DNA of 64,000 nucleotides from an uncultured Chlamydiae bacterium (GTDB lineage: Bacteria > Chlamydiota > Chlamydiia > Chlamydiales > Parachlamydiaceae), in the NCBI GenBank assembly GCA_963754655.1, contig CAVWGN010000001.1, positions 320,001-384,000 of the forward strand, in the 5' to 3' direction. Positions 412-49,276 of this stretch are shown here, one piece after another (within the stretch, counting starts at the first letter, position 1; each line of letters opens with the position of its first letter). The translations under genes were made by a program, and so were the position numbers. The notes under the pieces are model-generated. The model worked only from the letters and a program-made list of their open reading frames with translations, had not been told where the DNA came from and did no database searches.

Positions 412-711
412 AGCCACTCCTTTGCTTTTTTAAAGACTGATAAAGCAACCATCCTTTGAGAGTTTGCTTGGGATTATGCAAGAACTGTGCCAGAAAAGAC
501 GAAAATTCAATTTTTTGAATTCCTTTAATAGTCTAAGAGAGATTGGAAAGGGGAGACAGATAGGTGGAAAATTTTAAATAAAATCAAATGTCTTTAGTAC
601 TCGTTTACATGAGTTTTTGCCTATTGGCACTGCTTCAAAGCCCGGGGTTGGGATGAGATGATTTTCTTGTAGTCCTTCAGACTACATGACGAGGGCTGAT
701 CTAACCCAGGG

Positions 712-1370
712 CCGGGACTTAACAAAGAACTGTTTTTGGGCTTGATATTCGTCGATTCAATTTAACAATACCCCGCCTGTAACAGGCTTTAGAGGCCTAT
801 TTCTCGGAAATGACACGAAAAACATCAAGCCCAAAACAGTTCTTTGTTAAGTCCCGGCCATAGGCTAGGAACGAAATGCTTCTAGCAAACTCCAGAAGCT
901 AAAATTGTCGCTCAAGCGGCGTTAGCCGCGCATGGATAGTAGCCGTGGGTGTAGGCGAAGCCGGAACCCACGGTGTATGGTAAAAAAAATGAAGCCACGT
1001 TAGTGGCGTAGGAAATGTGATTGTGGAGCAATGTTTATTTAAACGAATGCTACGCCACTAACGTGGCTCAAATTTGTTTTTTTTGTAACCGTGGGTTTCG
1101 GCTTGCGCCTACACCCACGGCTACTATCCATGCGCGGCTAACGCCGCTCGTCGCTGAGGGAAAGGATATGGATCAAGCAACATTGAAAAAACAAAGATAA
1201 AAATTCCGATTACCTAGCCATATGCCGGGACTTAACAAAGAACTGTTTTGGGCTTGATGTTTTTCGTGTCATTTTCGAGAAATATGCCTTTAAAGCCTGT
1301 TACAGCCGTGGTGTTGTTAAATTGACACGAAGAATATCAAGCCCAAAAACAGTTCTTTGTTAAGTCCCGA
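712..1370. mobile_element. Non-autonomous composite element B-C-B' (659 bp) with a 7-bp target duplication
   Basis: Two inverted 146-bp units (712-857, 1225-1370), each with TIR (c/t)cgggacttaacaaagaactgtttt; flanked by cccaggg at 705-711 and 1371-1377; second copy at 25293-25949 in the opposite orientation. Confidence 0.9.
915..1148. repeat. REP-like doublet (long interrupted palindrome) in the core of the composite
   Basis: agcggcgttagccgcgcatggatagtagccgtgggtgtaggcg...acccacgg...gccacgttagtggcgtag followed by its reverse complement. Confidence 0.85.
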
Positions 1371-1378
1371 CCCAGGGC

Positions 1379-1773
1379 TAGGGTGTTCATTTTGTGCAAA
1401 AAATGAGCTTTATTTTTCACAATAATTGGCATAGTTGAATAGAAGGTCGCATGTTTATGCCGTCCTTTCAGGACTCGATGTCTTTTTGATAGAACCCAGG
1501 CCTCCGCTTCGCTGCGACCTGGGCTGTAGCATGACGGCCCTTCAGGCCTAACAAGAGATGTTTAAGTCCCTCTTCTATAGTCCCTAAATCATCTTTTTGT
1601 TAAGGCCTGAAGGGCCGTCATGTTACAGCCCAGGTCGCAGCGAAGCGGAGGCCTGGGTTCTATCAAAAAGACATCGAGTCCTGAAAGGACGGCATAAACA
1701 TGCGACCTTCTATTCAACTATGCCAATTATTGTGAAAAATAAAGCTCATTTTTTGCACAAAATGAACACCCTA
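1379..1773. repeat. Giant palindrome 'D' (arms about 175 bp, loop about 42 bp), ends TA-GGGTGT...ACACCC-TA
   Basis: Arms are near-perfect reverse complements; further copies at 52523-53082 and 57415-57810. Confidence 0.9.
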
Positions 1774-25092: not shown

Positions 25093-25982
25093 CCCACCGT
25101 TCGGTCGCCCTCCGGGCTCGGTCACGGTGGGCTAGGAACAGTCGTCCTCCGGACTCTAGCGGCATTATCAAAATGCCTTGACTAGCATTCTAGCAGCATT
25201 AACAAACATCTTATTACCAAACACCTTACCTAACATTCAATGGCTTCTACATTGCTGCTAGAGTCCGGAGGACGACTGTTATTAGCCCACCGTCGGGACT
25301 TAACAAAGAACTGTTTTGGACTTGATATTCGTCGCATCAATTTAACAACACCACGCCTGTAATAGACTTTAGAGGCATATTTCCCGAAAATGACGCGAAA
25401 AACATCAAGCCCAAAACAGTTCTTTGTTAAGTGCCGGCATATGGCTAGGTAATCGGAATTTTTATCTTTGTTTTTGCAATGTTGCTTGATCCATATCTTT
25501 TCCCTCAGCGACGAGCGGCGTTAGCCGCGCATGGATAGTAGCCGTGGGTGTAGGCGGAGCCGGAACCCACGGTTACCCAAAAAACAAATTTGAGCCACGT
25601 TAGTGGCGTAGCATTCGTTTAAATAAACATTGCTCCACAATCACATTTCCTACGCCACTAACGTGGCTTCATTTTTTTTACCATACACCGTGGGTTCCGG
25701 CTTCGCCTACACCCACGGCTACTATCCATGCGCGGCTAACGCCGCTTGAGCGACAAATTTAGCTTCTGGAGTTTGCCAGAAGCATTTCGTTCCTAGCCTA
25801 TGGCCGGGACTTAACAAAGAACTGTTTTGGGCTTGATGTTTTTCGTGTCAATTTTCGGGAAATATGCCTCTAAAGTCTATTACAGGCGGGGTGTTGTTAA
25901 ATTGACGGGACGAATATCAAGCCCAAAACAGTTCTTTGTTAAGTCCCGGCCCACCGTGACCGAGCCCGGCGGGCGACTGAAT
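25093..25982. repeat. REP-like doublet (second family) whose right arm is split by the composite
   Basis: Left arm ttcggtcgccctccgggctcggtcacggtgggctaggaacagtcgtcctccggactctagc; its reverse complement is restored by joining 25255-25292 to 25957-25982. Confidence 0.85.
25293..25949. mobile_element. Second copy of composite B-C-B' (657 bp), inverted relative to 712-1370
   Basis: Flanked by the 7-bp direct repeat cccaccg (25286-25292, 25950-25956). Confidence 0.9.
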
Positions 25983-29919: not shown

Positions 29920-30974
29920 AACTCTCCCGAAATTTTTGAAGGCTTTTGGCACACGAAAGTAAACTCAACGTCCTCGGGAGAGGCAATTTCATCTGTATAT
30001 CCTTTTAAGACTTTAATGGCGCTAAATCCCACCTCTTTTAGCAGACGATGAAATTGTTCTTGAGTATACCAGCGCATTTTCAACGTTTCATGTTCAGTAG
30101 AAATGATTGTTCCTTGATCCAAAATATCATAACGATATTCGGAATATTCAAGTTGTTGATGACGATCAAATTTCGCCTTTTCCCAACATTGAATGGTCAT
30201 GCCATCCGATCTTATTCCTTCTCTACGCAAACGCCATTCATCTTGAATAGGTGCACTGACATAAATATCATGGTCTGTAAGAATAAAGAGAGAAATGAGG
30301 AGAGACCCTTCGGGCTTTAAATGAAGATAAAAACGTCTTAATGCTTCTAGCGCTTCTTTTTCATCATGAATCAACATAAAGGAACCAAAAGGAATAAATA
30401 GTGTGCCATACTGTTTTGGAATGTTTAGCTGCTGCATTGCTTGTTGATAGAGATTTAATTTTAAACCATGCTTTTCAGCTTTCATTCGACATCTCTCAAG
30501 CATATGGGGAGATAAATCAACTCCTTCCACTTGTAAACCTTTTTTAGCATAGGGAATCAACAGTCTCCCATCTCCACAACCTAGCTCTAAAGCAGGTTGA
30601 CTCTGGTTTTTTAAGATGTATTTTTCATATAACTTTGCATCTTCATACTCTTGATTTTCTGGAAACCAAACTCCATAAGACTCCGAGCTCACTCTTCCAT
30701 AGCCTTGCATTTTTCTTTCCCTCCTTTCTAATAGTGATAATTCTCTATCTTTATGTAGACAATGCTTTGCAAAAAGATCCACAATCAGCTCTTCTTGTTG
30801 TCTGTAAACCTTGCTTTGTTGCAATTTATCCAACTTTTTATCTTTCGGATGTGGAGTAGAAAAAAAATGCTGGGTAGGAAGGATGAGCTGCTTTTGATTT
30901 TTTCTAAAAGACATTCTTCTGAATCGCTGAAATTCATGCAACGGTTGTGAGAAATGAATTCTGGATATTCTCAT
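29916..30974 (-). CDS. Class I SAM-dependent methyltransferase with an N-terminal extension
   Basis: LELGCGDGR, GVDLSPHML and HLKPEG motifs; start overlaps the NRPS stop. Confidence 0.9.
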   Translation of the reverse strand: MRISRIHFSQPLHEFQRFRRMSFRKNQKQLILPTQHFFSTPHPKDKKLDKLQQSKVYRQQEELIVDLFAKHCLHKDRELSLLERRERKMQGYGRVSSESYGVWFPENQEYEDAKLYEKYILKNQSQPALELGCGDGRLLIPYAKKGLQVEGVDLSPHMLERCRMKAEKHGLKLNLYQQAMQQLNIPKQYGTLFIPFGSFMLIHDEKEALEALRRFYLHLKPEGSLLISLFILTDHDIYVSAPIQDEWRLRREGIRSDGMTIQCWEKAKFDRHQQLEYSEYRYDILDQGTIISTEHETLKMRWYTQEQFHRLLKEVGFSAIKVLKGYTDEIASPEDVEFTFVCQKPSKISGEL

Positions 30975-33900
30975 AAGTGTTGAGCCTCCAAAGAATGATT
31001 TGTTCGACTTTCAAGCTCATGAACAATTTGCTTAATTGCCAATAAGTAATGTTTTTGCCATTCGTGCATCGTTGCTTCTTCAAAAGAGTGCGTATCATAA
31101 CAAATGGAAAGGGTTAATCGATCTTCCATAATGATGGCATTGACCTCAATAAGATGAGGAACTGGATTACGCGGATCGGTTAGATTGGCAAATGTTTCTC
31201 GACAGTTTGACAAGAGACTCTGCGATCCTTGAAGCAAATCGGATCCTACACGGCCGAAATAATTAAATAAAATTTCAGGAGCTAAGGCTTGAAGTTGTGG
31301 GTGTTGATGATGATATTTAGCTACACCAAAATGAAAGTCATTTGGAGCAATCTGCCGTAAATGCTGACGAATGGATAATAATGTCTCCATTAGGCTCGGT
31401 GCTTCTTCTATTGAGAAAGGAAAGAGTGTGGTCAACCAACCCACCGTGCGGCCTACATCAACATGTGGAATGTTTTCTCGCCCATGTCCCTCCAAATCTA
31501 AGAGTAATCGACTCATTTTAAATTGTTGTTTTAAAGAGCTAAATAAAGCAGTGAGGAGAAGATCATTGACATTGGTATCAAACACTTGATGCACCGACAT
31601 CAACTGACGTGTAAATTCCGCATCAAAATGCAACGACACTTCTTTATAATATTGAGACTGATTGCAAGGGCGTTGTTTCTCCGCAATGGAGGGATGATCT
31701 TTTAGCTGCAAGGCTAGCCAATAATCAATGTTTAATTGTTGAGGCTTCAATTCATGAAGAGTCAATGCATAATTAACCCAAGAATCGGTTGTGAGAAGTG
31801 GAGGTGGATTTAAGTGATGCTGGTAGAGCAACTCAATGTCTTCGACAAGATAACGCCAAGAAACTCCATCAATGAGAAGATGATGAACAGCAATAAATAA
31901 ACGCTGTTCCTGATGATTGAGTTGAAAAATCACCGCAGCAAAAAGAGGTCCTGTAAAAAGATTAAAACTTTCTTGTCGTTTTTGTGTGATCTGCAAAATC
32001 TGTTGTTGTTGCTGCTCAAATGTCAATGAACTCAAGTTGATGATGTCAAGTTTAAAAGAAAAAGGTTGAGCAATTCTTTGTTCGATCATTCCATTCTTTT
32101 CTTCAAAGAGGGATCGTAATGCTACATGATCATCCAAACATTTTGAAATGACAATTTCCAAAAGCTCAATATTCACATGCACAGGTAAACGGAAAAGATA
32201 AGCCATGTTGAAATAATGTGGATTGGGCATCTGGTGTTGAAAAAACCATTTTTGTATAGGCGTAAGCGGGCTGATGAATAATTCTTCTTGTTGTGATTTT
32301 TCCTTTATTTCTAACGAAACAGTTGAAACATGTTGACTTAACGCTGCAATCGTGCGGTATTGGAAAATATCTTTAATTGTAAAACAAAGATTGCGTTGTC
32401 TTGCTTTTGATAAGATTCTCATGGCAATAATAGAATCTCCTCCAACAGCAAAAAAATCATCAAAGATGCCTAAAGATTCAACTGATAGTCCTAAGACTTG
32501 ACACCAGGCTTCATGTAAAAATGTTTCTTCCGTTGTTCTCGGTTTGGCAATTTGAGCTTGTTCTTGTTGCAAGGGATGAGGAAGGTTTTGATAATTGATT
32601 TTGCCATTTGAATTAATTGGTAAAGTCTGCACTTCAACAAAATAAGCTGGAATCATAAAGGCAGGAAGCTTGTGGCTGAGCCAATCTCGAATTTCCTTTT
32701 GAGAAATCTCCTTTTTTAAGCTATAGAAAGCGCAAAGGGTCTTTCCTCTTGCTTGAATATCTTTTAAAGCTACAGCAGCAGACTGCACAGCTGGATGTTG
32801 AGAAAGATAGCCTTCAATTTCATTGAGTTCAATTCGATGGCCACGAATCTTCACTTGCCTATCAGTGCGTCCCACATATTCTAAAATCCCTGTTGGCAAT
32901 AGGCGACCTAAATCACCCGATCGATACATTTTTCCAGGATGAAATGGATCCCTCATAAAACGCTCTTGTGTCAAACATGAATCATTCAAATATCCTCTTG
33001 CTAAGCATTCTCCTCCAATATAAATTTCTCCTATGCTCCCAATGGGAACCGGTTTTTGATCTGCATCTAAAAGATGAATCATGACTGTGCGAATAGGATA
33101 TCCAATTGGCATTTGAGAATACTTTTCATCCAGGGTTGAATTCCATTCATAAACAATGCATCCAACAGTTGCTTCTGTCGGACCATATTCATTATACACT
33201 TGAATGGGTTGATCATATAGCTCACTCAGTTCTTGAACCTTTGCCGTATAAAGAGCTTCGCCACCTACAATAAATTTATAAATGTTGGAAAGAGGCTTTC
33301 CATTCTCGATGATCATATTGAGATGGGTCGGCGTTAATTTTAAAATATTGATTTCTTGATCTTGGCAAATGTTTCGTAAGACTTCATCAAATTCGCCTGT
33401 ATAAATACGTAAATAAGAGCCTGTAAACAAAGGACAGAAAAGACTTGTGACGGTTAAATCAAATGTCAAAGGAGAATAAAAAGGAAAGATGGGCCGTTCA
33501 CCTTCTCGATCGCTAAAATAATAGTGGATTGCCCATTCGATATAATTTTTCACAGTGCCATGCTCGACCATAACTCCTTTGGGAACACCTGTTGAACCGG
33601 AAGTAAATAAAACATAGGCCAATGCCGTGGGGGAAATGGGTAAATTTAAATTTGCCTTAGAAGAGGAGATCAAATGGCATAATCCATATTGATCTTTATG
33701 TTTCTTTGCTGTTCTTGGTACAGGCGATTGTTTATCAATGAAGAGAAGGGCATCATATCTAAACTGTGTCAACTCATTTTCAATTGTATGTTCTTTTTGG
33801 CTAATGCAGACATCGACAATCATAGGAAAATCAGCTTGCAAATCTTCTAAAAAGCGACGAGATAAAAAAAGTTCAACAGACCAATCTGTTTTAGTACGAT

Positions 33901-36900
33901 ATTGCTGATTGTGATTTTGATTTTTAAAATCATGCATGTATTTTTCAAGCTGTTCTTTGAGATCGAGATCCATGAGATCCCCCAGAAAAATGACTGCTTG
34001 ATTCTTCACTTTATGAATAGCCTGCTCAATGACGTGTTTAAAATAGTTAAGTCCTGGAAAGCAATGAACCACGCTATTGAGAATCACACAGTCAAATGCC
34101 TCCTCTTCAATGTTTTGAATCTCATGCGCATAGACTTGAGCAAAATGTACATGAGGAAGTTTGTTCTTTGAAGCTTTCTGCCGATTTTTTGCAATGATGC
34201 GGGAAGAAAGATCGGTTCCTAAATAAAAACCTGTTAAAGGCGCGAGTCCAAAAAGAGTAATTCCTGATCCGCATCCAATTTCCAACACACGGCTACTGGT
34301 CGTCAAAAGAGGACGAAGCTTATTGACAATACTTTGCTTATATTCTTCCATCTCAAATTTAGAAAATGGAAGGCCGGTGTCGCTTTTAACCCAGCCGCTG
34401 GAGTGAATGTCATCTTCTCCTTCTTCTGCTACTTGGTCCCAAAGGCTTTCATTCATTAAAGTATGTTGGGATTGCTCTTGCAATCGTGCGGGATGTTCCA
34501 CATCCAGGCAAATATAAGCTTGCAAGCACTCATTCTCCCATTGCATTTTATTTAATGCAGATAAATGAGAGCTTTTTGAGACAACTAAACGAATGTTTCC
34601 CTGTTGAATAATGGATTGAGTTCTTTCTAAAGGAGCTTTAATGTCTAAGGGAACATAGGCTCCTCCTGCTTTCAAAATGCCTAGAATGCTAATAATGGAT
34701 TCAATGGAATTTTCCATATAAATCGCCACAAGTTCTTCTGGCAGTAAGGCCTTTTGATTCTTTAGAAAATGAGCCAGTTGATTGGCTCGCTGATTCAACT
34801 CTTCGTAGGAAACCGCTGTATGGCGATCTTTGATTGCAACTGCATGGGGACAAACTGCGACCTGATTTTCAAAAATGCGATGTAAAGGTTGACTCACTTC
34901 TAAAAGCTTTTTCTTAGAAGGAATCCATTCATGGACTAATTGATAAGCAGCAGGATCAATCGCTACATCTTTAATGCTCAAAGAAGGATTTCTCACAAGC
35001 GATTGGAGAAGACTTAAATAACTGCGAAAAAGAGTTTCAATCATTTGATCGCTATATATTTCTTGATAATACTCAATATAGCAATCCAGTCCATCCTCGC
35101 GTTTGACAAATTCAAACTCTAAATCCCATCGGCAATTATGATGAGGAAGCTCAATCCGAGAAGCAGTAAACTCTTTAAAAGATGCTTTAGATTCTGCATC
35201 GACATCAAACTGATGAAGGGCGACGTTAATATTGAAAAGAGGAGAACGACTTGTATCTCTTGGCAAATTTAGTCGATCAATCAACTGATCAAAGGGGTAA
35301 TCTTGATGTTCTAAAGAGTGTAGCACATCTTGCGCCGTCATCAGGAGAATATCTAAATAACTTTGTGTAGAATCGAGCTGATGGCGCAAAACAATGGTAT
35401 TAACAAAAAATCCAACGATTGATCTCAAATCATAGTGAGAGCGTCCAGCCACAGGTGAACCAACGATCAGATCTTTCTGTCCTGTATAACGGTAAATAAG
35501 AACGTAAATGGAAGCCACTAGACCCATAAATAATGTGGCTTGATGCTTTTGCGTTAATTGATTCAAATCCTTTAACACAGAAGCTGGAATTTTAAAAATA
35601 CGCCTTCCTCCCTTGAAGGTGAAGACAGTAGGCCGCTGATGATCTCCTGGAATTTCACAGATAGGCAAAGACCCTTTCAATTTTTGCATCCAATATTGCG
35701 CACTCTTCTCGATCTTTTCATTTTGCATAAGCTTTTGCTGCCACTGGCTATAATCGACATATTGAATGGCAAGAGGGGGAAGAGAAGTTTTTTTGCCTTC
35801 TTTGATGTGTTGATAAGATTTCAACAGATCATCAAAAAGAATTTTCAGAGAAGTTCCATCGGAAATCATATGATGCATCATGAGCAGGAAAATATGCTCC
35901 TGCTCGGATGTCTCAATCAAAAGAGCTTTAATTAAGGGTCCTTGAGAAAGATTGAAAACGCCTTGCTTGAAATCTTCAATCATTTGATCTTTTTCAGCCC
36001 CTGTCATTTGAAAAAGGGTGAGATCGAAAGTCTCAGGAGGAAGAATTTTCTGGTAAGGTTGTCCTTCTTGATCAATAAAAATTGTTCTAAGACTTTCATG
36101 ACGAATGATCAGGTGATCTAAAGCGCTTTGAAAGGCTTTTTTATCTAAATTGCCTTTCAAAGAGTAGCATTCCCATATATTATAGGCAGTAGGATGATCT
36201 TGCATCTGATGAAGAATCCACAGTCTTCTTTGGCCATAAGATAGGGGAATGAGCGTATTGCGATCGACTTTGGGAATCAAATCACAATCTTGAGTGTCTT
36301 TCCGACATAATAACTGGATTAAGTCGCAAATTCTTGGATGACTGAACAACTCTTGAAAGGAAAGGCGCTTATGAAAATGCTTATGGATTTCATTAATCAA
36401 TTGAACACCGAGAAGCGAATCACCACCTAATTCAAAAAAGTTGTCATTCTCTTGAATGTGGTCAATTCCCATCATTTTCTTAAAGATGCTTATGAGAATC
36501 TGCTGTGGATCTTCACCCATGATTTCTTGAGCAATCGCAGTAGAATGCTGATGAAATTCGCGATTTGCAAAAGCTGCATTTTCAATCCAAAAGCGATGTG
36601 GAGAAAAGACATAGTTAGGCAAAGGGACAACATGAACATTGAATGATTTAAAAAATAGCAGCCAGTCCACTTCTTGTCCTTTGAGATAATCCATGACAAG
36701 TGCTTGAGCAGGATAAAATTCTTTTACAGAGGGGTTGCTGTTGTCTTCTAGAATTCTTTTAAGTTTCTGATAAGCATCTTTCTTCGAATCACACATCAAT
36801 CCTATTCGGTTTGCATAATGATCTCGACGCACAGCAAGTGTGTAACAGATATCACCAATTGAAAGAGTCGTATTTTCCAAAAAAGCCAGATATCTTTTGG

Positions 36901-38398
36901 CTAGTTCCTTTAATCCCTTTTCAGTTTGACTAGAAAGAACAAAAGGCAAAGGTTCTGTCGAGGGCGAATCTTTTTCCTTTAATTCATCCCCTTCTTCAAG
37001 AACGAGGTGGCAATTTGTTCCATTAAAACCAAATGCGCTGACTGCTGCTCGTCTTGGATGAGTAGATGCCTCCCATGGAAGAGGATGATTGACAATATAA
37101 ACAGGGGTGGACGAGAAATCGATGAGTTCATTAGGCTCATTAAAATGCAAATTTGGAACCATTTCCTTATTTTTGATGGATAGCAGCGTTTTAATTAAAC
37201 TTGCTAATCCCGAAGCTCCTCCAGTCAAATGGCCGATATTTGTTTTAATTGAACCGAGACCGCAAAATTGCTTATCTTGCGTAAATGTCTCAAAAGCTTT
37301 TGTTATCGCTTGAATTTCAATGGGATCTCCGATCTTAGTCCCCGTGCCATGTGCTTCAAAATAGTCAATGGTACGTGGGTCGATCTTTGCTTTCTTCCAT
37401 ACATCCTTTAACAATGTTTCCTGAGCTAAGGGATTAGGGGCACCTACGCTTGAAGAGCGTCCATCATTATTGACGCCGCTCGCTAAAATCGTTGCGTAGA
37501 TGTAATCTTGATCGCGCTTTGCCTCTTCAAAACGTTTAAGGACTAGAGCGCCGCCTCCTTCTCCAATGACAATGCCATTTGCTTTGTTATCAAATGCGCG
37601 ACATTTTCCATCGCTAGAGGTGATGCCTAAGACATCAATGTGATCATCGATAAGAGCAAATGGAAATAAGCGAAGGTTGATTGCTCCCACTAAAGCCATT
37701 TGGCATTCTTTTAAAAGCAGGGATTGGCAAGCTTCATGGACTGCAACTAGAGCAGTGGAGCAAGTCGTGCTGACATTGACAGTAGGGCCATGTAAATCAT
37801 AAAAGTAGGAAATGCGAGAGGTGATAAAAGGGGTCACATTTCCAATGACAGCGGATGCGCTGACTTCTGGAATAATTTGGCGATACTCATTCATGACGTC
37901 GCCTAAAAAAACTCCTGTGTTCGTTCCTTGTAGCATGCGACGCGTATATCCTGCATCTTCAAAAGCTTCATGAGCCAATTCTAAAAAGATCCGCTGCTGT
38001 GGATCCATGACTTTAGCTTCGGCAGGCAGGATGCGAAAAAACTCGTGATCAAAAAGATCGATGCGCTCTAAAAATCCTCCTTCAGAATAACGTTTAGAAG
38101 CTTTAAATCGTTTTGAAGGAACAGAAGAGGCAAGCGGATCAATATCCTGGCGTCGACTTTCCGGAAAGGAAGTCACACAATCCACGCCTTTGTGAAGATT
38201 GTCCCAAAATTTCTCTTTTGTGGATGCCATAGGCATGCGGCACGAAATCCCAATAATGGCAATTTTCTGGGAAGAATCGACTTCCATTGGCTGGTGCTGA
38301 TGCAAGCGCTGATATTCTTCAATCAAAGCATGAGCCGTTTTTTGGTCAAACTGCTTGTCTTTATAAAGTTTCAATAGGTGTTTAATATACAGGTCCAT
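30971..38398 (-). CDS. Hybrid trans-AT PKS/NRPS: KS-ACP-C-A(MT-interrupted, Asn)-PCP-E
   Basis: KS (TTCSTAL, HGTGT, NIGH), no AT, ACP GGDSL, C HHMISDG, A with pocket code DLTKIGEVGK, MT VLEIGCGSG, PCP GGDSI, E domain (HHLLIDGVSW, EGHGRE, RTVGWLT). Confidence 0.93.
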   Translation of the reverse strand: MDLYIKHLLKLYKDKQFDQKTAHALIEEYQRLHQHQPMEVDSSQKIAIIGISCRMPMASTKEKFWDNLHKGVDCVTSFPESRRQDIDPLASSVPSKRFKASKRYSEGGFLERIDLFDHEFFRILPAEAKVMDPQQRIFLELAHEAFEDAGYTRRMLQGTNTGVFLGDVMNEYRQIIPEVSASAVIGNVTPFITSRISYFYDLHGPTVNVSTTCSTALVAVHEACQSLLLKECQMALVGAINLRLFPFALIDDHIDVLGITSSDGKCRAFDNKANGIVIGEGGGALVLKRFEEAKRDQDYIYATILASGVNNDGRSSSVGAPNPLAQETLLKDVWKKAKIDPRTIDYFEAHGTGTKIGDPIEIQAITKAFETFTQDKQFCGLGSIKTNIGHLTGGASGLASLIKTLLSIKNKEMVPNLHFNEPNELIDFSSTPVYIVNHPLPWEASTHPRRAAVSAFGFNGTNCHLVLEEGDELKEKDSPSTEPLPFVLSSQTEKGLKELAKRYLAFLENTTLSIGDICYTLAVRRDHYANRIGLMCDSKKDAYQKLKRILEDNSNPSVKEFYPAQALVMDYLKGQEVDWLLFFKSFNVHVVPLPNYVFSPHRFWIENAAFANREFHQHSTAIAQEIMGEDPQQILISIFKKMMGIDHIQENDNFFELGGDSLLGVQLINEIHKHFHKRLSFQELFSHPRICDLIQLLCRKDTQDCDLIPKVDRNTLIPLSYGQRRLWILHQMQDHPTAYNIWECYSLKGNLDKKAFQSALDHLIIRHESLRTIFIDQEGQPYQKILPPETFDLTLFQMTGAEKDQMIEDFKQGVFNLSQGPLIKALLIETSEQEHIFLLMMHHMISDGTSLKILFDDLLKSYQHIKEGKKTSLPPLAIQYVDYSQWQQKLMQNEKIEKSAQYWMQKLKGSLPICEIPGDHQRPTVFTFKGGRRIFKIPASVLKDLNQLTQKHQATLFMGLVASIYVLIYRYTGQKDLIVGSPVAGRSHYDLRSIVGFFVNTIVLRHQLDSTQSYLDILLMTAQDVLHSLEHQDYPFDQLIDRLNLPRDTSRSPLFNINVALHQFDVDAESKASFKEFTASRIELPHHNCRWDLEFEFVKREDGLDCYIEYYQEIYSDQMIETLFRSYLSLLQSLVRNPSLSIKDVAIDPAAYQLVHEWIPSKKKLLEVSQPLHRIFENQVAVCPHAVAIKDRHTAVSYEELNQRANQLAHFLKNQKALLPEELVAIYMENSIESIISILGILKAGGAYVPLDIKAPLERTQSIIQQGNIRLVVSKSSHLSALNKMQWENECLQAYICLDVEHPARLQEQSQHTLMNESLWDQVAEEGEDDIHSSGWVKSDTGLPFSKFEMEEYKQSIVNKLRPLLTTSSRVLEIGCGSGITLFGLAPLTGFYLGTDLSSRIIAKNRQKASKNKLPHVHFAQVYAHEIQNIEEEAFDCVILNSVVHCFPGLNYFKHVIEQAIHKVKNQAVIFLGDLMDLDLKEQLEKYMHDFKNQNHNQQYRTKTDWSVELFLSRRFLEDLQADFPMIVDVCISQKEHTIENELTQFRYDALLFIDKQSPVPRTAKKHKDQYGLCHLISSSKANLNLPISPTALAYVLFTSGSTGVPKGVMVEHGTVKNYIEWAIHYYFSDREGERPIFPFYSPLTFDLTVTSLFCPLFTGSYLRIYTGEFDEVLRNICQDQEINILKLTPTHLNMIIENGKPLSNIYKFIVGGEALYTAKVQELSELYDQPIQVYNEYGPTEATVGCIVYEWNSTLDEKYSQMPIGYPIRTVMIHLLDADQKPVPIGSIGEIYIGGECLARGYLNDSCLTQERFMRDPFHPGKMYRSGDLGRLLPTGILEYVGRTDRQVKIRGHRIELNEIEGYLSQHPAVQSAAVALKDIQARGKTLCAFYSLKKEISQKEIRDWLSHKLPAFMIPAYFVEVQTLPINSNGKINYQNLPHPLQQEQAQIAKPRTTEETFLHEAWCQVLGLSVESLGIFDDFFAVGGDSIIAMRILSKARQRNLCFTIKDIFQYRTIAALSQHVSTVSLEIKEKSQQEELFISPLTPIQKWFFQHQMPNPHYFNMAYLFRLPVHVNIELLEIVISKCLDDHVALRSLFEEKNGMIEQRIAQPFSFKLDIINLSSLTFEQQQQQILQITQKRQESFNLFTGPLFAAVIFQLNHQEQRLFIAVHHLLIDGVSWRYLVEDIELLYQHHLNPPPLLTTDSWVNYALTLHELKPQQLNIDYWLALQLKDHPSIAEKQRPCNQSQYYKEVSLHFDAEFTRQLMSVHQVFDTNVNDLLLTALFSSLKQQFKMSRLLLDLEGHGRENIPHVDVGRTVGWLTTLFPFSIEEAPSLMETLLSIRQHLRQIAPNDFHFGVAKYHHQHPQLQALAPEILFNYFGRVGSDLLQGSQSLLSNCRETFANLTDPRNPVPHLIEVNAIIMEDRLTLSICYDTHSFEEATMHEWQKHYLLAIKQIVHELESRTNHSLEAQHL

Positions 38399-38405
38399 AA
38401 ATGAC

Positions 38406-41400
38406 TTACCTTAAGAGCTGAGCTGCTTTGTCAAGATCGATGAGGCCACTGTCAATATCAATCAAAAGTTGCGAAATTGTATCTTTCTGATTCTCTCCAT
38501 ACAACTTCTTTTTGCAGTGATGACAAAATAAGTCCAGAGTTGAATGAGAATAAAGATCTGACACTTCCAATGGAATTTGCAGTTGTGTTTTAGCAAGATG
38601 AGTCAATTTCACCGCACTAATGGAGTCTCCGCCACTATCAAAGAAGTTATCTGAATCTGCAATGTGAGAATGTCCTAAGACATCCTTCCAAATTTGGATG
38701 AGGATGGCTTTGATCTCTTGAGGTGAAAGATCTGATTGTAAGGAATGAGAATGGATGATCTTTGGTTGAGAGTCAATTGAGTGACCCTTAAACTTCCTTA
38801 ATAACTCTTCCGAAAATCGAATTTTTATGAATGGCAAGACGAGATTCATCACATGGGAATCAAAATCTGCCACCACGGCAAAAGGAAGGGCGTAAGATAA
38901 AAAGAGATCCAAACACTCAATAAATTCTTCCTTGGTGATGGGAGGAATCATACTCATTCGATCTGAAAGAAGACTTCCATCATCAGCATCAATTAAAGTA
39001 TAATTCATTGTAATTGTCTTTCTTCCTTGTTTATTGCGAAAATCTCCATAGCTATCTAAAAAAAGATTTTGGGCGCAACAATCTGCTCCTGTTGGACCCC
39101 CCATCAAAGAAGAAATTGAAGAAAATGTTGCCATAAAATCGAGTGGATGATGAAGCGTCAATTGATCAAGTAGCCAAATGACTCTTAGCTTTGAAAGAAC
39201 ATTGTGTCTAAATATATCAAAGGAAACTTTTTCAATGACTGTATGGTTGACATTTTTGATCGCAACAAAAATGCCATGAATAGATCCCCACTGATTTTCA
39301 ATCTGTTGAATAAATCCGCTACATTCTTGCTGATCAGTAATATCCCCTGACAGGTAGAGGACTTCTGATCCAAGTTCCTGGAGGTGTTTGATGATTCGCA
39401 AAGGTTTGTCTGTTAGATGACTTTCTGGCTTTCTTCCGATTAGAGCTATTTTAACCTTGGCTTTTTTAGCTAATAATAGGGCTGTCTCCAAACCTAGATA
39501 GCCTCCTCCTCCTGCAATCAAATAGACACCTCCTTCTCTAATCATAAATGAAGGTGAGGGCAAATGGGAAATATCTAACGAATGAAGAATTTGAACATAC
39601 CGTTTTCCGTTGCGGTATCCAATAAAAGGATCTGAATAAGTGAGAGACTCAAAGATGTCTTGATAAAGATTTTGAGCCATTTGCTCGCTATAATTGTGGA
39701 TGTCAATATCGATGGCTAAGCTCTGAACTTGAGGAAATTCTTGGGAAATCACCTTGTTGATGCCAAGAGCCGCCATTCTGGTAGGATCTATAAATGGCTC
39801 TTGTCCATCAATGCTTTGGGCATAAGCGGTGATATTGATAAATTTTAATTCTTTTGATGTGAGTTGCTTTTGGCAAGCACGAATGAGATGAAAACAGCTA
39901 AAAGCACTTCTGTCTTGTGAATGGCTGATAGCCTCATAGCTTTCCATACTGCAAGAAGAGGGAAGGCAATCCCATAGATGAATCATCCCGGCTAACTTGT
40001 CTAATGAGAGCTGATGGAGAAGTTGGGAATAGTCTGAAGGAATATGAGGCCGAATAGTGAAGCTGCTCTGATTGACTTGTTCAAAGTGATCTCCTGCAAA
40101 AACTTGAATGACATTCATTCCTTTGGCTTTGCAAAAATCCGAAAATTTCTGATGTTCTGGAATAGCCTGCATCAAAAATAAAACAGAAAGCTGAGGATCG
40201 ATTAGTTCTACATTTCCCTCTTTATTTTTGCTTTCTTCTTTCCAATCAAGAGAGAAAAATAAATCTTGCAAACGGCTCTGCTTTTCTTGAGGGATTTCTA
40301 CCTCAAGTTTAGGCCAATGACGTTTGGCATTAAAAGCATAAACAGGAATTGCAACTTTTTGTTTGTTTTTTTCACCAAAGATTGTTGTCCAATTGACAGA
40401 TTGTCCATTGAAATAGGAGCTTATTTCATGAATCAGACTCTTTTTTAATAGCTGTTGCAATTCAGAAGGAGCGTGCCAAAGAGGGGCTGAGTCAGTGATC
40501 GTATGATAAAAGAGGCGATGCAGCGGATCATTTTGAAAGCGATCTTTCTCTTTGTGATTTAAGTAAGCGGTTATTTGCTGAACGAATTCCTGACATGTCT
40601 TACCCATCATGACAAGGCGATGAGAATAATGATTTCTACCAACAGCTGATGTATAAGCAATATGGGCTAACAGGTCATCGCTAACTGTTTGTAAATAGTG
40701 TGCGTATCTTTTTAAGAGCAAATGAAGAGCAGTAGGATCTTTTGCTGAAATAAACAAAAGATAAGGATCTTCAGAATAAATGTTAGGAATTTGCATGGGG
40801 TATTCTTCTAAAACTAAATGGCAATTGGTTCCGCTAATGCCAAAGGAACTAACACCTGCTAATAGGGGAGAAGCAGTGTGAAAGGATAATAATTGATGAT
40901 TTGGAAAGACTGGGGATTGATCAAAGTCGATAAAGGGATTAGGTTTATTAAAATGAATATTGGGAGGCAGTTGTCGATGCTTCAAACAAAGAATGGCTTT
41001 AATCAGTCCTGCAATTCCCGATGCAGCCTCAAGATGTCCAATATTTGTCTTCACAGCACCTAAAGGGCAAAAATTTGTCTTTTCTGTATATTTTCTAAAT
41101 GCGTAAGTTAAACCCGTGACTTCAATGGGATCGCCTAATTTTGTTCCTGTGCCATGCGTTTCAATAAAGCTTAGCTGTTCAGGATTAATTCTCGCTTTCT
41201 CCCATGCTTGGCAAATCACATCAGTTTGAGCTTCCGGATTTGGGGTTGTAATGCCATTGGAAGTCCCATCACTATTCACTGCGCTTCCTTTAATCATGGC
41301 ATGAATATAGTCTCCATCTCGTTCCGCCAAATCTCTTCTTTTAATGACAAGCGCGGCCACTCCATCTCCAATGTTCGTTCCATTCGCTTTTTCATCAAAC

Positions 41401-42179
41401 GTTTTGCATTTGCCATCAAATGCTTCAATTCCCAAATTGGCAATCTCCCGGAGAGCAGGAAAAAATCGGATATTCACTCCTCCAACAATCGCCTGTTCGC
41501 AATCCCCATCTTTTATGGCTTGACATGCTTGATGAACTGCAACAAGAGAAGCTGAACAAGATGTATCGATCAGCATGGTAGGTCCTTTTAAATCAAATAA
41601 ATAAGACAAACGATAAGCCAATAGGGCAGGTTGATTGCCTAGAGAAACTGAAGAATCATTTTTATCTAAAATATCGATATAATTATCTTCATTGACCGAA
41701 TAGCCGATATAAATCCCTGTTTTGCTTCCACGCAATTGACTTTCGGTCAAGCACGCATGATCGAGCGCTTCAATGGCCACTTCAAGGAAAAGACGTTGAG
41801 CGGGATCCATGACTCGCGCTTCAACAGGTGTTAAGCCAAAAAAAGTATGATCAAAGAGATCAATGCGATCTAAATAAGCTCCGGCTCGGCAATTCAGTCC
41901 CTTTGTCTGTTCAAAAATAGCCGAATTGACATATTTGATATCTTCCATTCGATTTTTGGGAAAAGCTGTCACCGCATCTTTTCGATTGAGAAGTTGAGTC
42001 CAAAATTCTTCTGGATTTTGAGAGCCTGGAAAGCGACAAGCCATCCCAATAATTGCCCATTCAATCACTTGTGCAGACGGGGCTGGTTGTCCAATCTGTT
42101 TTAAATAAGTATAAGCCTCTTCCGGGGTCAATTGTTTGCTTTGAACTTGCTCAATAATAAATTCTTGTAAACTTTTCAT
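38406..42179 (-). CDS. Trans-AT PKS module KS-KR-ACP
   Basis: KS (DTSCSASL, HGTGT, NIGHLE), no AT, KR GGGGYLG with Cys at the catalytic Tyr position (GADCCAQN), ACP GGDSI. Confidence 0.92.
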   Translation of the reverse strand: MKSLQEFIIEQVQSKQLTPEEAYTYLKQIGQPAPSAQVIEWAIIGMACRFPGSQNPEEFWTQLLNRKDAVTAFPKNRMEDIKYVNSAIFEQTKGLNCRAGAYLDRIDLFDHTFFGLTPVEARVMDPAQRLFLEVAIEALDHACLTESQLRGSKTGIYIGYSVNEDNYIDILDKNDSSVSLGNQPALLAYRLSYLFDLKGPTMLIDTSCSASLVAVHQACQAIKDGDCEQAIVGGVNIRFFPALREIANLGIEAFDGKCKTFDEKANGTNIGDGVAALVIKRRDLAERDGDYIHAMIKGSAVNSDGTSNGITTPNPEAQTDVICQAWEKARINPEQLSFIETHGTGTKLGDPIEVTGLTYAFRKYTEKTNFCPLGAVKTNIGHLEAASGIAGLIKAILCLKHRQLPPNIHFNKPNPFIDFDQSPVFPNHQLLSFHTASPLLAGVSSFGISGTNCHLVLEEYPMQIPNIYSEDPYLLFISAKDPTALHLLLKRYAHYLQTVSDDLLAHIAYTSAVGRNHYSHRLVMMGKTCQEFVQQITAYLNHKEKDRFQNDPLHRLFYHTITDSAPLWHAPSELQQLLKKSLIHEISSYFNGQSVNWTTIFGEKNKQKVAIPVYAFNAKRHWPKLEVEIPQEKQSRLQDLFFSLDWKEESKNKEGNVELIDPQLSVLFLMQAIPEHQKFSDFCKAKGMNVIQVFAGDHFEQVNQSSFTIRPHIPSDYSQLLHQLSLDKLAGMIHLWDCLPSSCSMESYEAISHSQDRSAFSCFHLIRACQKQLTSKELKFINITAYAQSIDGQEPFIDPTRMAALGINKVISQEFPQVQSLAIDIDIHNYSEQMAQNLYQDIFESLTYSDPFIGYRNGKRYVQILHSLDISHLPSPSFMIREGGVYLIAGGGGYLGLETALLLAKKAKVKIALIGRKPESHLTDKPLRIIKHLQELGSEVLYLSGDITDQQECSGFIQQIENQWGSIHGIFVAIKNVNHTVIEKVSFDIFRHNVLSKLRVIWLLDQLTLHHPLDFMATFSSISSLMGGPTGADCCAQNLFLDSYGDFRNKQGRKTITMNYTLIDADDGSLLSDRMSMIPPITKEEFIECLDLFLSYALPFAVVADFDSHVMNLVLPFIKIRFSEELLRKFKGHSIDSQPKIIHSHSLQSDLSPQEIKAILIQIWKDVLGHSHIADSDNFFDSGGDSISAVKLTHLAKTQLQIPLEVSDLYSHSTLDLFCHHCKKKLYGENQKDTISQLLIDIDSGLIDLDKAAQLLR

Positions 42180-42186
42180 ATCATTC

Positions 42187-45100
42187 TTAGTAAGTTAGAT
42201 TATTTTTAACTGTTTGAATATCAACAGCGCCTTCTGCTAGCTGTTGCAGTAGATTTAATGTTTTGTCAGAAGAAGGGGTTGTTCTCTCAACTGTATTTTG
42301 TTGTTTTTGCTTCAGCATCTCGATCATCTGGCCTTGTGCTTGACAGGTGTGATGAATAAAGAGATCAGCAATATTTATTTTCAAATTAAATTGATCTTGA
42401 AAGAGTTGATGAAGTTTAACGATTAACAAAGAATTTCCTCCTATTTCAAAAAAGCTATCGTGAAGCTGAATATGTGCGATAGGCAAAACGCTCTTCCAAA
42501 TCTGGAGAATTTGAATTTGGATTTCAGAATAAGTGTCATCTTGAAAAGAAGCGGGCTTTTTCCGATAAGTATTCAGTTGAAGATAAAGAGCAGGATAATT
42601 GATTTTCCCATTGGGGAGCCGAGGAAATTCCTCAATGAAAAGGAAAGCGTCGGGCATTAAATAAGGAGGAAGTTTTTTTCTGAGTTTTTCTTTAATGACA
42701 ATTCTCTTTTCATCGTAATGCTGGGTCATGGCTGCATGTGCAGGAATGATAAAAGCGGCAATTTCCGTTGAATTTTGGTTCATCTCTTGTCGGCAAATGA
42801 TCAGAGACTTGCCCACTTCTTCTAATTGATCAATGTTTGCTTGAATTTCCTCGGGCTCAATTCTAAAACCTCGTCTTTTAATCTGTCCATCCAGGCGGCC
42901 TAATAAGAAGAGAGTTCCATTTTTATCGTAGTAAGCCTTGTCTCCTGTTTTGTAGATTCTCTCTCCCGTTTCGGGATGAGAGAGAAACTTGGATTTGGTT
43001 AATTCAGGAAGATTAATATATTCTCGTGCAAGGCCTTCTCCTCCAATATAGAGTTCTCCGGCAACGCCAATAGGGACAACTTGCAAATAAGGATTTAAGA
43101 CAAAACAGCGCACGTTCTGAAGAGGTTTTCCAATTGGAATTGCCTGTTCAATATCTGTTTCAATCAAATGACATGCACAAGAAATTGAAGTTGCTTCTGT
43201 CGCTCCATAAGTATTGAGCAATTTAATTTGATGGCCAAAGTGACTTTTCCATTTCTGAAGTGTATATTTATTTAACCGCTCTCCACCGATGATCAAGAGT
43301 CTTAGGCTAGAGGGAAGAGAAAGATTTTTTTGAATCAAATAATCTGTAAAATCATGCCAATAAGAAGTAGGAAAATTCCATATGCTGATCTCATATTGAT
43401 GAGACATCTCAAGAATCTGATCAAAGGGTTCAACGAGAGCATTTCCTCTTAAGACAACTGTTCCACCAGCTAGAAGGCAGGGATAAATTTCTTCTGAGCT
43501 TGTATCCCAACTTATCGAGGCAAATTGTAAACAATGATCTTTCGAAGTCATTTCGAAGAGTGTTTTGGCTGCTAAAGCAAAATTAAGGAGAGAGTGATGT
43601 TCAACAGCCACTCCTTTGGGTTGACCGGTAGAGCCCGAAGTAAATAATAAATAGGCAAGTTGGTTTCTAAGATTGGAGATAGGAGAGAGTTTAACTGAGG
43701 ATTTTTCAGGAAGGTGAGCAGGATCGATAAGAGTGCCCTTAAAATAGGCGAAGCGATTAAGTAGAGTGGTTTGACAAATTAAAATATCAATCTTGGCTTC
43801 TTTAATGATCCATTCAATTCTTTCTTGAGGATAAGAAGGATCCAGGGGAACATAGGCACATCCGCATTGCATAATGGCTAAGAGAGTCGGGATCAGAAAA
43901 CGCGTTTTTTCCATTGCTAAACCGATGGCTTCTCCCTCTCTTCCTTTTACGAGAAGCAAGGCTTGCGCAATGGCTTGCGATGCCTCCAGGAGTTCTCGAT
44001 AGCTCATCTCCTTGCCTTCTGCAATAACGGCAATCGCATCTGGATGTTGCTGAGCTTGTTCTTTAATCAAATCAAAAACTGTTTCAACTGCCGGAAGTTC
44101 CACGTGCGTTTTGTTCCATTCTATCGTCATCATTTGCACGAGGCTTGGATGCATAAATTGTACAGCTTGAACCGGTTGATCAGAGAATCGAAGGACTTGC
44201 TTAATAAGGGTCATGTAATCTTCCGCGAATTGCTCAACAAGAAAAGTGGGTAGACGCTCTTCACGGTATTCAAATAGTAATGCAAGATGCTGGGATTTTT
44301 GGCGGACTTCTAATACTAGGTCATAAAGAACAGGATGATCAGATGGGTGGACAATCTCTACTGTTGCATTCGGGAAATGTGGAATCTCAACAGGAGCATT
44401 TTGCATGACAAACATCACTTGGAAAAGAGGATGAACGCCGTCTATTCGCTTCGGGTTAACGGCATTTAAAATTTCTTGAAAGGGCAGAGCTTCATTTTTA
44501 ATTCCCTTTTGCAGTCCTTCTTTGACTTGCTGCAAGACCTCCTCAAAAGTTGTATGGGGCGAAAATGTTGTCTTATTCACTAATGTATTGACGAAGAAAC
44601 CCAGAACATTTTGAAACTCAAAAGAAGCGCGATTGGCACTCGGATATCCAATCAGAATCGTCGATTGATCAGAATAGCGATGGAGTAAAGCGTGATAAAC
44701 TGCAAGGAGAAAACAAGCTAACGTACAATGAGATTTGTAAATAAAATGTTGGATTTCATCAAACAAAGATGTTTCAATCTTCATTTGAATATTTTTCCCT
44801 TTTTTATGATGAACTGCTTTGATGGGTTGGTGCTCATGTGAAATTGCCAAAATAGAACACTCATCCAAATGGCCTAAATCATTTTTCCAATTGACCTTCA
44901 ATTGCTGCCATTCTTCTGTTTGAGAAAATTGCTCTTGCCATAAAGAAAAATGAGAATAATCAGACTCTAAAGCAGGTAATGTCGCTTTTTTTCCGGCTAG
45001 ATGTCCTGCATATAGCGCAAAGAGTTCATTTGCAAATACTCCCATGGACCAGCCATCGCAGATCATGTGATGGAAATTAAAAATGATGACATGATCTTCA

Positions 45101-47427: not shown

Positions 47428-49276
47428 ATGGTTGTAGCTTTTTTTCAATTAACTTTAACATTTCATTTGGATGACGAATAAAAAAGTGATCGCCGCTCAT
47501 CTCATAAAAGGCAGTTGCTTGTTGACTAAATGTTTTCCATCCTTCGATATCTTCTCTTTTTACAGTTTGATCTTCACGACCTCCAAACAATAAAAAAGAA
47601 GAATTAAGAGGGGCTTGCACGGAGGGTTGATAGTGATCAAGGAGGCGAAAATCGGCTCTTAAAATAGGAAGGAAAAAGTCTTTGAAAACCTCTTCTTTCA
47701 AAATCATTTCTGGCGTTCCATTTAATTTTTCTACTCTTTCAATAAAATCTTGATCATCGAGCATTCCCATTTGTGATAGAGGCCCTAATCGATCTGGAGA
47801 GGGACAGGCAGATAGGCAAAGAACTGAGGGTTCTAAACGATATTTATTCTTAAATTGCTGAGCTAATTCATACGCGACTAGAGCTCCTAAACTATGGCCA
47901 AAAAAAGCAAATTGAGACGAGATTTTGCATTTGACTTGTTTTTCTAACTCATCTAGCAAGTGATCGAATTGTTGAAGGGGTGGAACGTGACTTAACACTC
48001 CTCTGCCAGGATATTCAACGGGAATCACTTCTATGAAAGGCGGCAAGGAGTGACTCCAGTCTTTAAAAAGATTCGCTGAACCTCCTGCATAAGGAAAACA
48101 AAACAAATGCATGACGTGAGAGTTTTGAATGAAATATTCAGCGATCTCTACAGAAGAATAGCCCTTTAAACGTAACACTTCTTTTAGAATGGCATTGACT
48201 TCTTCTAAAGAATCCCTTTTCAACTCATGCAGCTTTTTGAGTTCAGAATATAAAGATTGAATCCTTCGCTGTTGCTCGGGTTGAAAAACTGTTTTATTCT
48301 TTGTGGTGGCTATGACTGTCAACGCTTTGGAAGCTGAATGGGAAATAGAGTGTGTGGAAACAGGTTCAAACCAAGAAGAGGATAATTCTTTAAAATTAAA
48401 TTCCACTGCCTGGCAGTTGACAGTAGGGAAAGAGTCGTTGAAAAATCTTAGCAATGTTCTTTTAGGGCCTATTTCTAATACATGGTCGCAATCTTGTTGA
48501 ACAAAAAATTGCATGGTATCCAGCCATTTAACAGGAGAAATGATTTGGACGGAGAGCAATCTTTTCATTTCTTCTACGCTTTCATAGGGTTTGGCTGTCA
48601 CATTAGAAATCACAGGAATCTGTGGAAAATTAAAAGAGGTGTGTTTGAGTTCTGTTTCAAATAATGAAACTGTCTCTTTTAATAAAGGAGTATGAAAAGG
48701 AAGATTAAGCTTTAAAAGTTTGGTTTGAGCGCCTAGCTTGTTGAGTTCTTTGGCCATCTGCTCAACAGGAAAAGCTAAACCCGAGATGACAATTTGCCTC
48801 ATTGAATTGATATTAGAAATATAGACATTCTCAAATTTAGCCATAACTTCATTTAGTTGATTAAGGGAGATGTTTTCAACAGCGCACATCTCCGCTGATC
48901 CTTCTCTTAAATTTCCCGCCATCAACTTAGCACGACTCTGGACGAGTTTAAGTCCCTCAAAAAAATCTAAAGCGCTTGAACAGACAAGTGCAGAATATTC
49001 TCCTAAACTGTGACCAGCGAAAAAATGAGGAAGATAAGAAAATTGTTCTTGAAACACTCGATAGGCGATGACGCTCAAAGAAAAAATTGCTGGCTGAGCA
49101 AAAGTTGTGTTGTATAATTCACTGCCAACAAGATTGCGCCCAAGAAGATCAAACCCTACTCTTTCACTTGCTTCATCAAATAACTTTCGAGCCAACACAT
49201 AGTCTTCATACAAACGCACTCCCATTCCGGAATATTGAGACCCCTGGCCTGGAAAAACGACGGCAAATTTATTCAT
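47405..49276 (-). CDS. Fusion of a FabD-like trans-acyltransferase and a type II thioesterase
   Basis: AT: FPGQGSQ, GHSLGEY, PFHT, EIGP; TE: FCFPYAGGSA, GHSLG, LRADF, GDHFF. Confidence 0.92.
   Translation of the reverse strand: MNKFAVVFPGQGSQYSGMGVRLYEDYVLARKLFDEASERVGFDLLGRNLVGSELYNTTFAQPAIFSLSVIAYRVFQEQFSYLPHFFAGHSLGEYSALVCSSALDFFEGLKLVQSRAKLMAGNLREGSAEMCAVENISLNQLNEVMAKFENVYISNINSMRQIVISGLAFPVEQMAKELNKLGAQTKLLKLNLPFHTPLLKETVSLFETELKHTSFNFPQIPVISNVTAKPYESVEEMKRLLSVQIISPVKWLDTMQFFVQQDCDHVLEIGPKRTLLRFFNDSFPTVNCQAVEFNFKELSSSWFEPVSTHSISHSASKALTVIATTKNKTVFQPEQQRRIQSLYSELKKLHELKRDSLEEVNAILKEVLRLKGYSSVEIAEYFIQNSHVMHLFCFPYAGGSANLFKDWSHSLPPFIEVIPVEYPGRGVLSHVPPLQQFDHLLDELEKQVKCKISSQFAFFGHSLGALVAYELAQQFKNKYRLEPSVLCLSACPSPDRLGPLSQMGMLDDQDFIERVEKLNGTPEMILKEEVFKDFFLPILRADFRLLDHYQPSVQAPLNSSFLLFGGREDQTVKREDIEGWKTFSQQATAFYEMSGDHFFIRHPNEMLKLIEKKLQPYEKRVPI

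Follow-up and report, generated by a model that had tools for sequence, protein, structure and literature searches.

A multicopy MITE-bounded composite element in an uncultured Chlamydiae bacterium and its probable two-ORF partner insertion sequence

Pairs of MITEs that mobilise the DNA lying between them have been described before. In TIME-COMP elements, two Tn3-derived MITEs mobilise intervening plasmid DNA and 5-bp duplications are formed (Szuplewska et al. 2014, PMC4133298). The element described here resembles TIME-COMP, as presented in the relevant passages of that paper, in that two non-autonomous MITEs, in direct or inverted arrangement, enclose unrelated DNA, and in that the whole transposes with a duplication at its outer ends only and with a transposase acting in trans, which for our element would be the case by inference. 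The same passages present TIME-COMP elements as 2.5-3.9 kb long, gene-carrying, Tn3-derived and captured once or twice, whereas the unit here is 657 bp long, has a repeat as its sole cargo, is flanked by 9-bp duplications at a near-palindrome, derives from an IS with a predicted Hermes fold, and has multiplied into a family that includes arrays. It is not a TIME-COMP element proper: that class has Tn3-type 38-bp inverted repeats and a 5-bp duplication (PMC4133298), whereas the duplication here is 9 bp and the partner is not Tn3-like. In Acinetobacter, MITE-flanked integrons and MITE-297 pairs consist of identical MITEs flanking a segment in the manner of a composite transposon (PMC6382973, PMC3934969). 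Unlike our unit, these carry resistance or metal genes and are described in the sections concerned as single or few-copy and as located on plasmids (PMC6382973, PMC3934969); Tn6645 is bounded by ISAba3, not by MITEs (PMC6382973). In a 2024 review of prokaryotic MITEs the word 'nested' is absent and 'composite' is used for IS-bounded transposons only. A MITE-bounded composite is a known kind of element; this one stands apart by its repeat-only cargo, its multicopy state, its guild-wide 9-bp target and its uncurated Hermes-fold partner, and the literature searches gave no earlier account of the family.

IS1397 is a member of the IS3 family. It is one of several ISs, ISPpu9 and others among them, that target REP sequences (Tobes & Pareja 2006, PMC1525189; PMC12288879). 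ISPpu9 belongs to IS110 (PMC12288879 / PMC1525189). The unit described here resembles these ISs in its preferential location inside extragenic palindromic repeats. The ISs, as far as the corresponding parts of these papers describe them, are autonomous and insert into host REPs (PMC1525189, PMC12288879), whereas here a non-autonomous composite is found at a 9-mer that sibling mobile elements duplicate.

The unit was recognized in a 64,000-nucleotide stretch of an uncultured Chlamydiae genome (the window), where the original prediction had a transposase-free composite element inserted twice. A unit of 657-659 bp was read at both places, positions 712-1370 (copy A) and, inverted, 25293-25949 (copy B), and the two agree with 95% mean column identity in an alignment of 716 columns that includes the flanks. 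Both copies are thus real, but "twice" understates the case, as they are two members of a genome-wide family. No ORF in the unit exceeds 59 aa and the arms have none of 40 aa or more, in agreement with the absence of a transposase. As a single strand, the unit is one long foldback (-283.7 kcal/mol, z = -38 relative to 20 shuffles). Its composite nature is also evident, with inverted 144-bp MITEs on either side of a 351-bp non-coding palindromic cargo (Table 1). Each arm is a complete MITE, CGGGACTTAAC...GTTAAGTCCCG, with TIRs of about 38 bp; it is short and non-coding, has TIRs and a duplication, occurs in many copies at unrelated loci and shares its termini with an autonomous IS (IS1, below). 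The whole has what is expected of a MITE-bounded composite, namely two terminal MITEs that are both complete, a core that has nothing to do with transposition, a duplication at the outer ends only, and occurrence at several independent sites.

Table 1. Positions of the composite, its parts and the elements associated with it; plain numbers are window positions and the prefix C1 marks positions in the genome
Feature	Position	Strand	Remarks
Mini-element, 55 bp, TGGGATGAGATG...CTGATCTA	649..703	.	between 9-mers GCCCGGGGT and ACCCAGGGC
9-bp target-site duplication of copy A, left, ACCCAGGGC	704..712	.	same 9-mer at 1370-1378
Left arm of copy A, complete 144-bp MITE CGGGACTTAAC...GTTAAGTCCCG	713..856	+	14 solo loci known as well, every copy with a 9-bp duplication of its own
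Inner 9-mer GCCATAGGC	857..865	.	uninterrupted cctaGCCATAGGCtagg joins cargo units in arm-free array
Cargo, 351-bp non-coding repeat	866..1216	+	own palindrome of ~240 bp, ~910-1148
Inner 9-mer GCCATATGC	1217..1225	.	8/9 identical to 857-865
Right arm of copy A, 144-bp MITE, inverted	1226..1369	-	reverse complement is 94% identical to left arm
9-bp duplication of copy A, right, ACCCAGGGC	1370..1378	.	doubles as left flank of next repeat
Rep410, 395-bp palindromic repeat, TAGGGTGTTCA...TGAACACCCTA	1379..1773	.	then 9-mer ACCCCGGGC at 1774-1782
9-bp duplication of copy B, GCCCACCGT	25285..25293	.	same 9-mer at 25949-25957
Copy B, inverted composite	25294..25948	-	inverted match to copy A
Arms of copy B	25294-25436 and 25805-25948		
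Inner 9-mers of copy B	25437-25445 and 25796-25804		
Cargo of copy B	25446-25795		
9-bp duplication of copy B, second	25949..25957	.	identical to 25285-25293
Mini-element (mini57), 55-57 bp, in window	649-703, 52459-52515, 57350-57406, 58026-58082		always between two CCCNGGG-type 9-mers
Rep410 copies in window	1379-1773, 52520-53091, 57407-57819		
IS1, 1786 bp, single-copy	C1:426687-428472 (L001 1188-2973)		outside window
IS2, ~1.86 kb, ~10 copies ~99% identical	C1:69946-71811 and ~9 more (L003-L009)		
IS256-family insertions in cargo	C1:2512852-2514192, 2840574-2841896, 2803854-2805172		

The genome-wide search proposed with the original prediction was done by BLAST of the parts of the unit against the window's own genome (3.16 Mb, 38.8% G+C). 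It revealed about 20 further full-length copies, so that the occurrence of the unit is far beyond chance. Non-redundant matches numbered 79 for the arm and 48 for the cargo; single full units were found at 13 loci, tandem arrays of the form arm-core-arm-core at five (the largest 3170 bp, C1:413215-416384), and solo 144-bp MITEs at 14, together with about seven truncated or interrupted copies and four diverged relatives of about 108 bp. With its 13 single-unit loci and five arrays, the composite is about as common as the parent MITE. The copies at 2512706, 2521535 and 2528556 have the same flanks and represent one locus tripled by segmental duplication. Among 19 aligned full units, identity ranged from 85.7 to 99.5% (median 94.1%), and units at unrelated sites can be as much as 98-99% identical (1957164 and 2528557, for instance), which indicates that whole-unit copying continued over time. 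Median identity between copies was 97% for the cargo (19 units) and 95-97% for the TIRs but 85-87% for the arm loops. Simple whole-unit copying does not predict such an excess of loop divergence; loop exchange with the numerous solo copies might account for it. In a diverged composite (C1:664504-665159, 86-90% identical to the others) the second arm loop is oriented like the first, and the internal arms of arrays are of the left type in three arrays and of the right type in one. From these orientation variants it seems that arm loops are able to invert or recombine by way of the TIRs.

It had originally been proposed that the insertions produced a 7-bp duplication (cccaggg for copy A, cccaccg for copy B) and that ccggga/tcggga were asymmetric ends of the element. 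With the element taken as CGGGACTTAAC...GTTAAGTCCCG, the duplication is instead 9 bp, ACCCAGGGC for copy A and GCCCACCGT for copy B, and the supposed asymmetric ends are the outer bases of this duplication, which vary with the target. When the flanks of 33 family members were tabulated, as had been proposed, direct repeats were present, but at 9 bp and not 7: a 9-bp repeat was perfect in 15 of the 33 and had at most one mismatch in 24, while no case was found among them for any other length from 5 to 12. The outer bases covary, being A..C for copy A and 982120, G..T at the GCCCACCGT sites and 1957164, A..T at 664504, G..A at 2928378 and C..C at 1703289. This covariation overturned a 7-bp duplication with variable element ends, which had been considered as an alternative. 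Both window targets do fit CCCASSG, as first stated, and the 9-bp target consensus genome-wide is R-CCC-W-SSG-Y. The duplication had two or more mismatches in 9 of the 33 elements, was mismatched solely at the central W in three, and in three others (1071131, whose flanks are perfectly inverted, 2646453 and 2863831) the flanks were not direct repeats. The imperfect and inverted flanks may have arisen by exchange between homologous copies. The inner junctions, GCCATAGGC and GCCATATGC, are constant while the outer duplications vary by site, which bears out the claim that the unit moves as a whole.

Uninterrupted versions of both target sites exist elsewhere in the genome. Copy A lies at a single 9-mer between the 55-bp mini-element and Rep410, and the corresponding empty site, TCTAACCCAGGGCTAGGGTGTTCA, has 18 uninterrupted occurrences at one mismatch or less. 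The empty-site string for copy B, TAGCCCACCGTGACCGAGCC, gave 86 matches at two mismatches or less, although at least four of the first 40 of these are right junctions of filled sites. Elements 345294, 565212, 890161 and 1480251 are inserted exactly at the copy-B position with GCCCACCGT on both sides, and element 725255 is at a variant of that site. These paralogous empty sites are within-genome evidence for insertion with duplication.

In 40 relatives searched, the MITE arms were not found, and the whole unit matched through the inner palindrome of the cargo alone, in the congener G002 (70-90% identity) and weakly in G015. The gene neighbouring copy B (786 aa) has no match in three congeners; the copy-A neighbour (330 aa) has homologues of 51-68% identity, and the other flanking gene was outside the retrieved loci. 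No empty site came to light in another genome from these comparisons. The minus strand of the window from 30971 to 49276 contains very large ORFs (2475, 1257, 1753 and 623 aa), and several other large ORFs in the window have no NCBIfam match at E <= 1e-10. A 20-base version of the terminus had no exact match in genome contigs or in metagenome contigs, from which records of this genome itself may have been left out. A 17-base version gave 27 single matches in unrelated taxa, none accompanied by a transposase relative, and we take these to be chance matches. Among the sequencing runs listed for the stretch there was no RNA run; one soil-metagenome run included short contigs of the stretch, none of which bridges either junction or an empty site; these have no bearing on mobility.

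The cargo also exists without arms. At C1:2805173-2806038 there is an arm-free tandem array of cargo units joined by an uninterrupted cctaGCCATAGGCtagg, in which the inner junctions are seen in their empty form. The cargo shows no similarity to IS1 or IS2, and no Rfam model reached its gathering score in the unit, where only hairpin-type microRNA models matched below threshold. As a separate matter, the cargo repeat carries three insertions of a 1.3-kb IS256-family element (PF00872, E 2e-143), each at a different position. Essentially all composites have the inner junction pair GCCATAGGC / GCCATATGC, and GCCATAGGC would be the relic duplication from the original insertion of an arm into a cargo array, judging from the sequences at these junctions. 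The G-to-T difference in GCCATATGC, which the composites have in common, argues for a single origin. All internal arms in the arrays carry this same pair, which points to growth of arrays by duplication of an arm plus core and not by repeated insertion. The composite presumably originated when MITEs landed at GCCATAGGC junctions of a tandem cargo array, after which the outer ends of two neighbouring MITEs would have been used together, giving a MITE-cargo-MITE mobile unit.

An autonomous IS having the ends of the unit had been suggested as a thing to look for, and one was found. This element, IS1, was located through a terminus match that had no nearby mate. Its left end is the same as the MITE arm over 18/18 bases and its right end is 83% identical over 35 bp; beyond the termini, the rest of the unit has no match to IS1. 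The flanking 9-mers of IS1 are GCTCAGGGC and GCCCAGGGC. Its coding region consists of a coiled-coil ORF1 of 116-123 aa and a 447-aa open frame that overlap at an A8 run. A second IS, IS2, has termini TGGGATGAGAAAAC, the same two-ORF layout and 9-bp duplications of the GCCCWGRGC type; its transposase is 27% identical to that of IS1. The IS1 frames are in a +1 relation across A8 and those of IS2 in a -1 relation across A9, so IS1 may lack one base relative to IS2 and be either defective or slippage-dependent. The ORFs of IS1 have no Pfam or NCBIfam match, and ORF2 matched no Pfam family even at E <= 1. Among 8000 candidates scored, 51 homologues of the transposase were found at E <= 0.001; wherever a source names them the name is 'hypothetical protein', and some are from Nostoc and Desmonostoc. 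Homologues of 519-525 aa have weak coiled-coil-type Pfam matches near the N-terminus and nothing else. By sequence, an IS256 or Mutator identity was rejected: ORF2 of neither IS1 nor IS2 matches PF00872, a profile that the true IS256-family element in this genome matches at 2e-143.

A structure model of IS1 ORF2 was obtained with a pLDDT of 90.5 from a 41-sequence alignment, in which D95, D161 and E349 are invariant. Foldseek placed Hermes at the top for this model (E 1.3e-6), followed by ISCth4 and the P element. The model shows a predicted DDE RNase-H core that contains an alpha-helical insertion domain and most resembles Hermes, and on this basis we class the partner as a DDE transposase of Hermes-like predicted fold. 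A PDB sequence-profile search gave no meaningful match, and there is no sequence-level match between the partner transposase and Hermes or other eukaryotic hAT enzymes (PDB 4d1q, 6dwz, 2bw3). The partner differs from these in further respects. The target-site duplication of hAT elements is 8 bp and here it is 9 bp; a BED finger stands at the N-terminus of Hermes and eukaryotic hAT transposases, whereas the partner has a coiled-coil N-terminal ORF joined across an A-run; and the host is a bacterium. Neither the dimerisation domain nor the BED finger was detected by hAT sequence profiles. By the tests run, which compare sequences, the partner transposase is not a hAT member. A bacterial hAT-like IS was not encountered in the hAT, Hermes and prokaryotic IS literature among the matches listed, and a literature search on the motifs GGGACTTAACAAAG, GCCCWGGGC and CCCWGGG gave nothing relevant.

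The claim that the unit sits in or against other repeats is correct for both window copies, copy B being in the CCCACCG arm of a hairpin-bearing repeat and copy A between the mini-element and Rep410. From 640 to 1782 the elements form a chain, which reads GCCCGGGGT / 55-bp mini-element / ACCCAGGGC / composite / ACCCAGGGC / 395-bp repeat / ACCCCGGGC. One end of the mini-element (TGGGATGAGATG) resembles the IS2 terminus TGGGATGAGAAAAC. Genome-wide there are 179 Rep410 ends, mostly preceded by CCCSGGG or CCCWGGG; the repeat gives near-threshold matches to RF01687 (Acido-Lenti-1; 35.4-36.4 bits, gathering score 37). REP/BIME sequences of the RAYT type are short hairpins that go with a Y1 transposase; the TIRs and 9-bp flanks of the present repeats are those of DDE-type elements. 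A conserved hairpin, AATAG-CCCAGGG-CATCG-CCCTGGG, is found at the end of a larger repeat, for example in the flanks of C1:1004597 and 1133942, and its first 17 bases have 30 exact copies. Two targets lie side by side in this hairpin, and one or the other of its arms is occupied in several insertions of the MITE or the composite.

The target motif is itself strongly over-represented. GCCCWGGGC occurs 89 times in the genome against about 4 expected from base composition, and ACCCAGGGC and GCCCACCGT, counted with their complements, occur 90 and 89 times. A survey of the 396 sides of 198 RCCCWGGGY sites, based on the commonest recurring 8-mers, assigned 76 sides to the conserved hairpin, about 49 to the AATAG-ended repeat, 43 to the 395-bp repeat, 35 to the mini-element, 33 to the 144-bp MITE and 11 to IS2. 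At least one repeated flank was found for 258/287 CCCWGGG sites, and sequence specificity alone therefore predicts landing among repeats; in the other 29/287 neither side has a repeated 11-mer. These 29 sites in unique context are few for CCCWGGG: GGGWCCC, a control of equal composition, has 68, and base composition predicts about 100. Progressive colonisation of free sites might explain the shortage, as might avoidance of the motif.

Taken together, we consider it probable that the unit is a non-autonomous composite, made of a MITE pair and cargo and moved in trans by IS1, with a 9-bp cut at RCCCWSSGY. This explanation is built on observed anatomy, copy number, 9-bp duplications, paralogous empty sites, shared termini and the fold. 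The two-ORF IS1 transposase would move the unit in trans, an assignment suggested by the shared termini, and integration would involve a 9-bp staggered cut at R-CCC-W-SSG-Y; the transposase supplier, like this chemistry and the order of events, we infer. Each insertion would leave two copies of the 9-mer, and the sister elements (IS2, Rep410 and the mini-element) are flanked alike. Since the 9-mer type is shared and two copies result per insertion, nearly all targets come to lie at repeat edges or stems, and the elements would pile up head to tail with single 9-mers between them.

The original prediction saw in this location a possible safe-haven strategy. In true safe-haven targeting the transposase, or selection acting on it, would recognize repeats or hairpin structure as such. 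Nearly every insertion does abut a repeat end on one or both sides, five elements are at the same position of one hairpin-bearing repeat, and unique context is left for just 29/287 CCCWGGG sites. Yet with 90% of the motif sites repeat-flanked the pattern is the one predicted by sequence specificity alone, and at one and the same site type the insertions are found either way round. At least one insertion, that at 1703289 with the perfect duplication CACGTGGGC, has none of the recurring repeat ends in its immediate flanks, and 1987838 is similar; the former indicates that a repeat is not required. IS2, Rep410 and mini57 share the 9-mer type and, with 258/287 sites repeat-flanked, such a strategy is not needed and appears unlikely. 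Shared specificity and target regeneration are enough to explain the clustering, and neither structure targeting nor purifying selection is needed. On these data a repeat-adjacent location is compatible with targeting and with selection against genic insertions alike. As to the enzyme, IS2 could be taken as the supplier for MITE and composite in place of IS1, since it is intact, shows recent activity and has a 9-bp target of the same kind, whereas IS1 is single-copy and has an odd frame relation. We regard this as improbable: the termini share GGGA only (CGGGACTTAAC versus TGGGATGAGAA), the transposases are only 27% identical, and the MITE equals IS1 over 18/18 terminal bases.

Perfect long terminal inverted repeats and the lack of an ORF might also be expected of a single long MITE that arose from an IS by internal deletion. 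Each arm is, however, a complete copy of an element that transposes alone, the cargo occurs without arms and has no IS1 or IS2 similarity, and the inner junctions resemble a 9-bp duplication, which makes such a derivation very hard to credit. Equally little probability attaches to the copies having spread by segmental duplication or recombination and not by transposition. The shared flanks of 2512706, 2521535 and 2528556 and the tandem amplification seen in arrays are of this kind, but the other loci have different flanks, 9-bp repeats of their own and matching uninterrupted paralogous sites. Beyond the composite explanation favoured here, a broader reading can be offered more tentatively, and we would put it at somewhat short of an even chance: a Hermes-fold IS lineage outside Pfam and NCBIfam may have given rise to a guild of elements on one 9-bp near-palindrome, to self-extending repeat chains and to the 657-bp unit as a 'second-order MITE', a pair of MITEs that had taken up a further repeat as cargo. 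The guild would comprise two ISs, at least three MITE families and the composite, and its elements would capture one another.

The composite is a natural example of MITEs acting as the IS ends of a composite transposon. It then multiplies as a repeat family of its own, whereas published cases, in the passages that describe them, are gene-carrying and seen once or a few times (PMC4133298). Regeneration of the target on both sides of each insertion supplies a mechanical reason for the nesting and chaining of bacterial repeats. For genome annotation, it should be noted that the entire guild escapes standard searches with protein families and with Rfam. The partner transposase family is sparsely sampled. 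Because its modelled fold comes nearest to a hAT transposase of eukaryotes, the system is of interest for the study of hAT relatives in prokaryotes.
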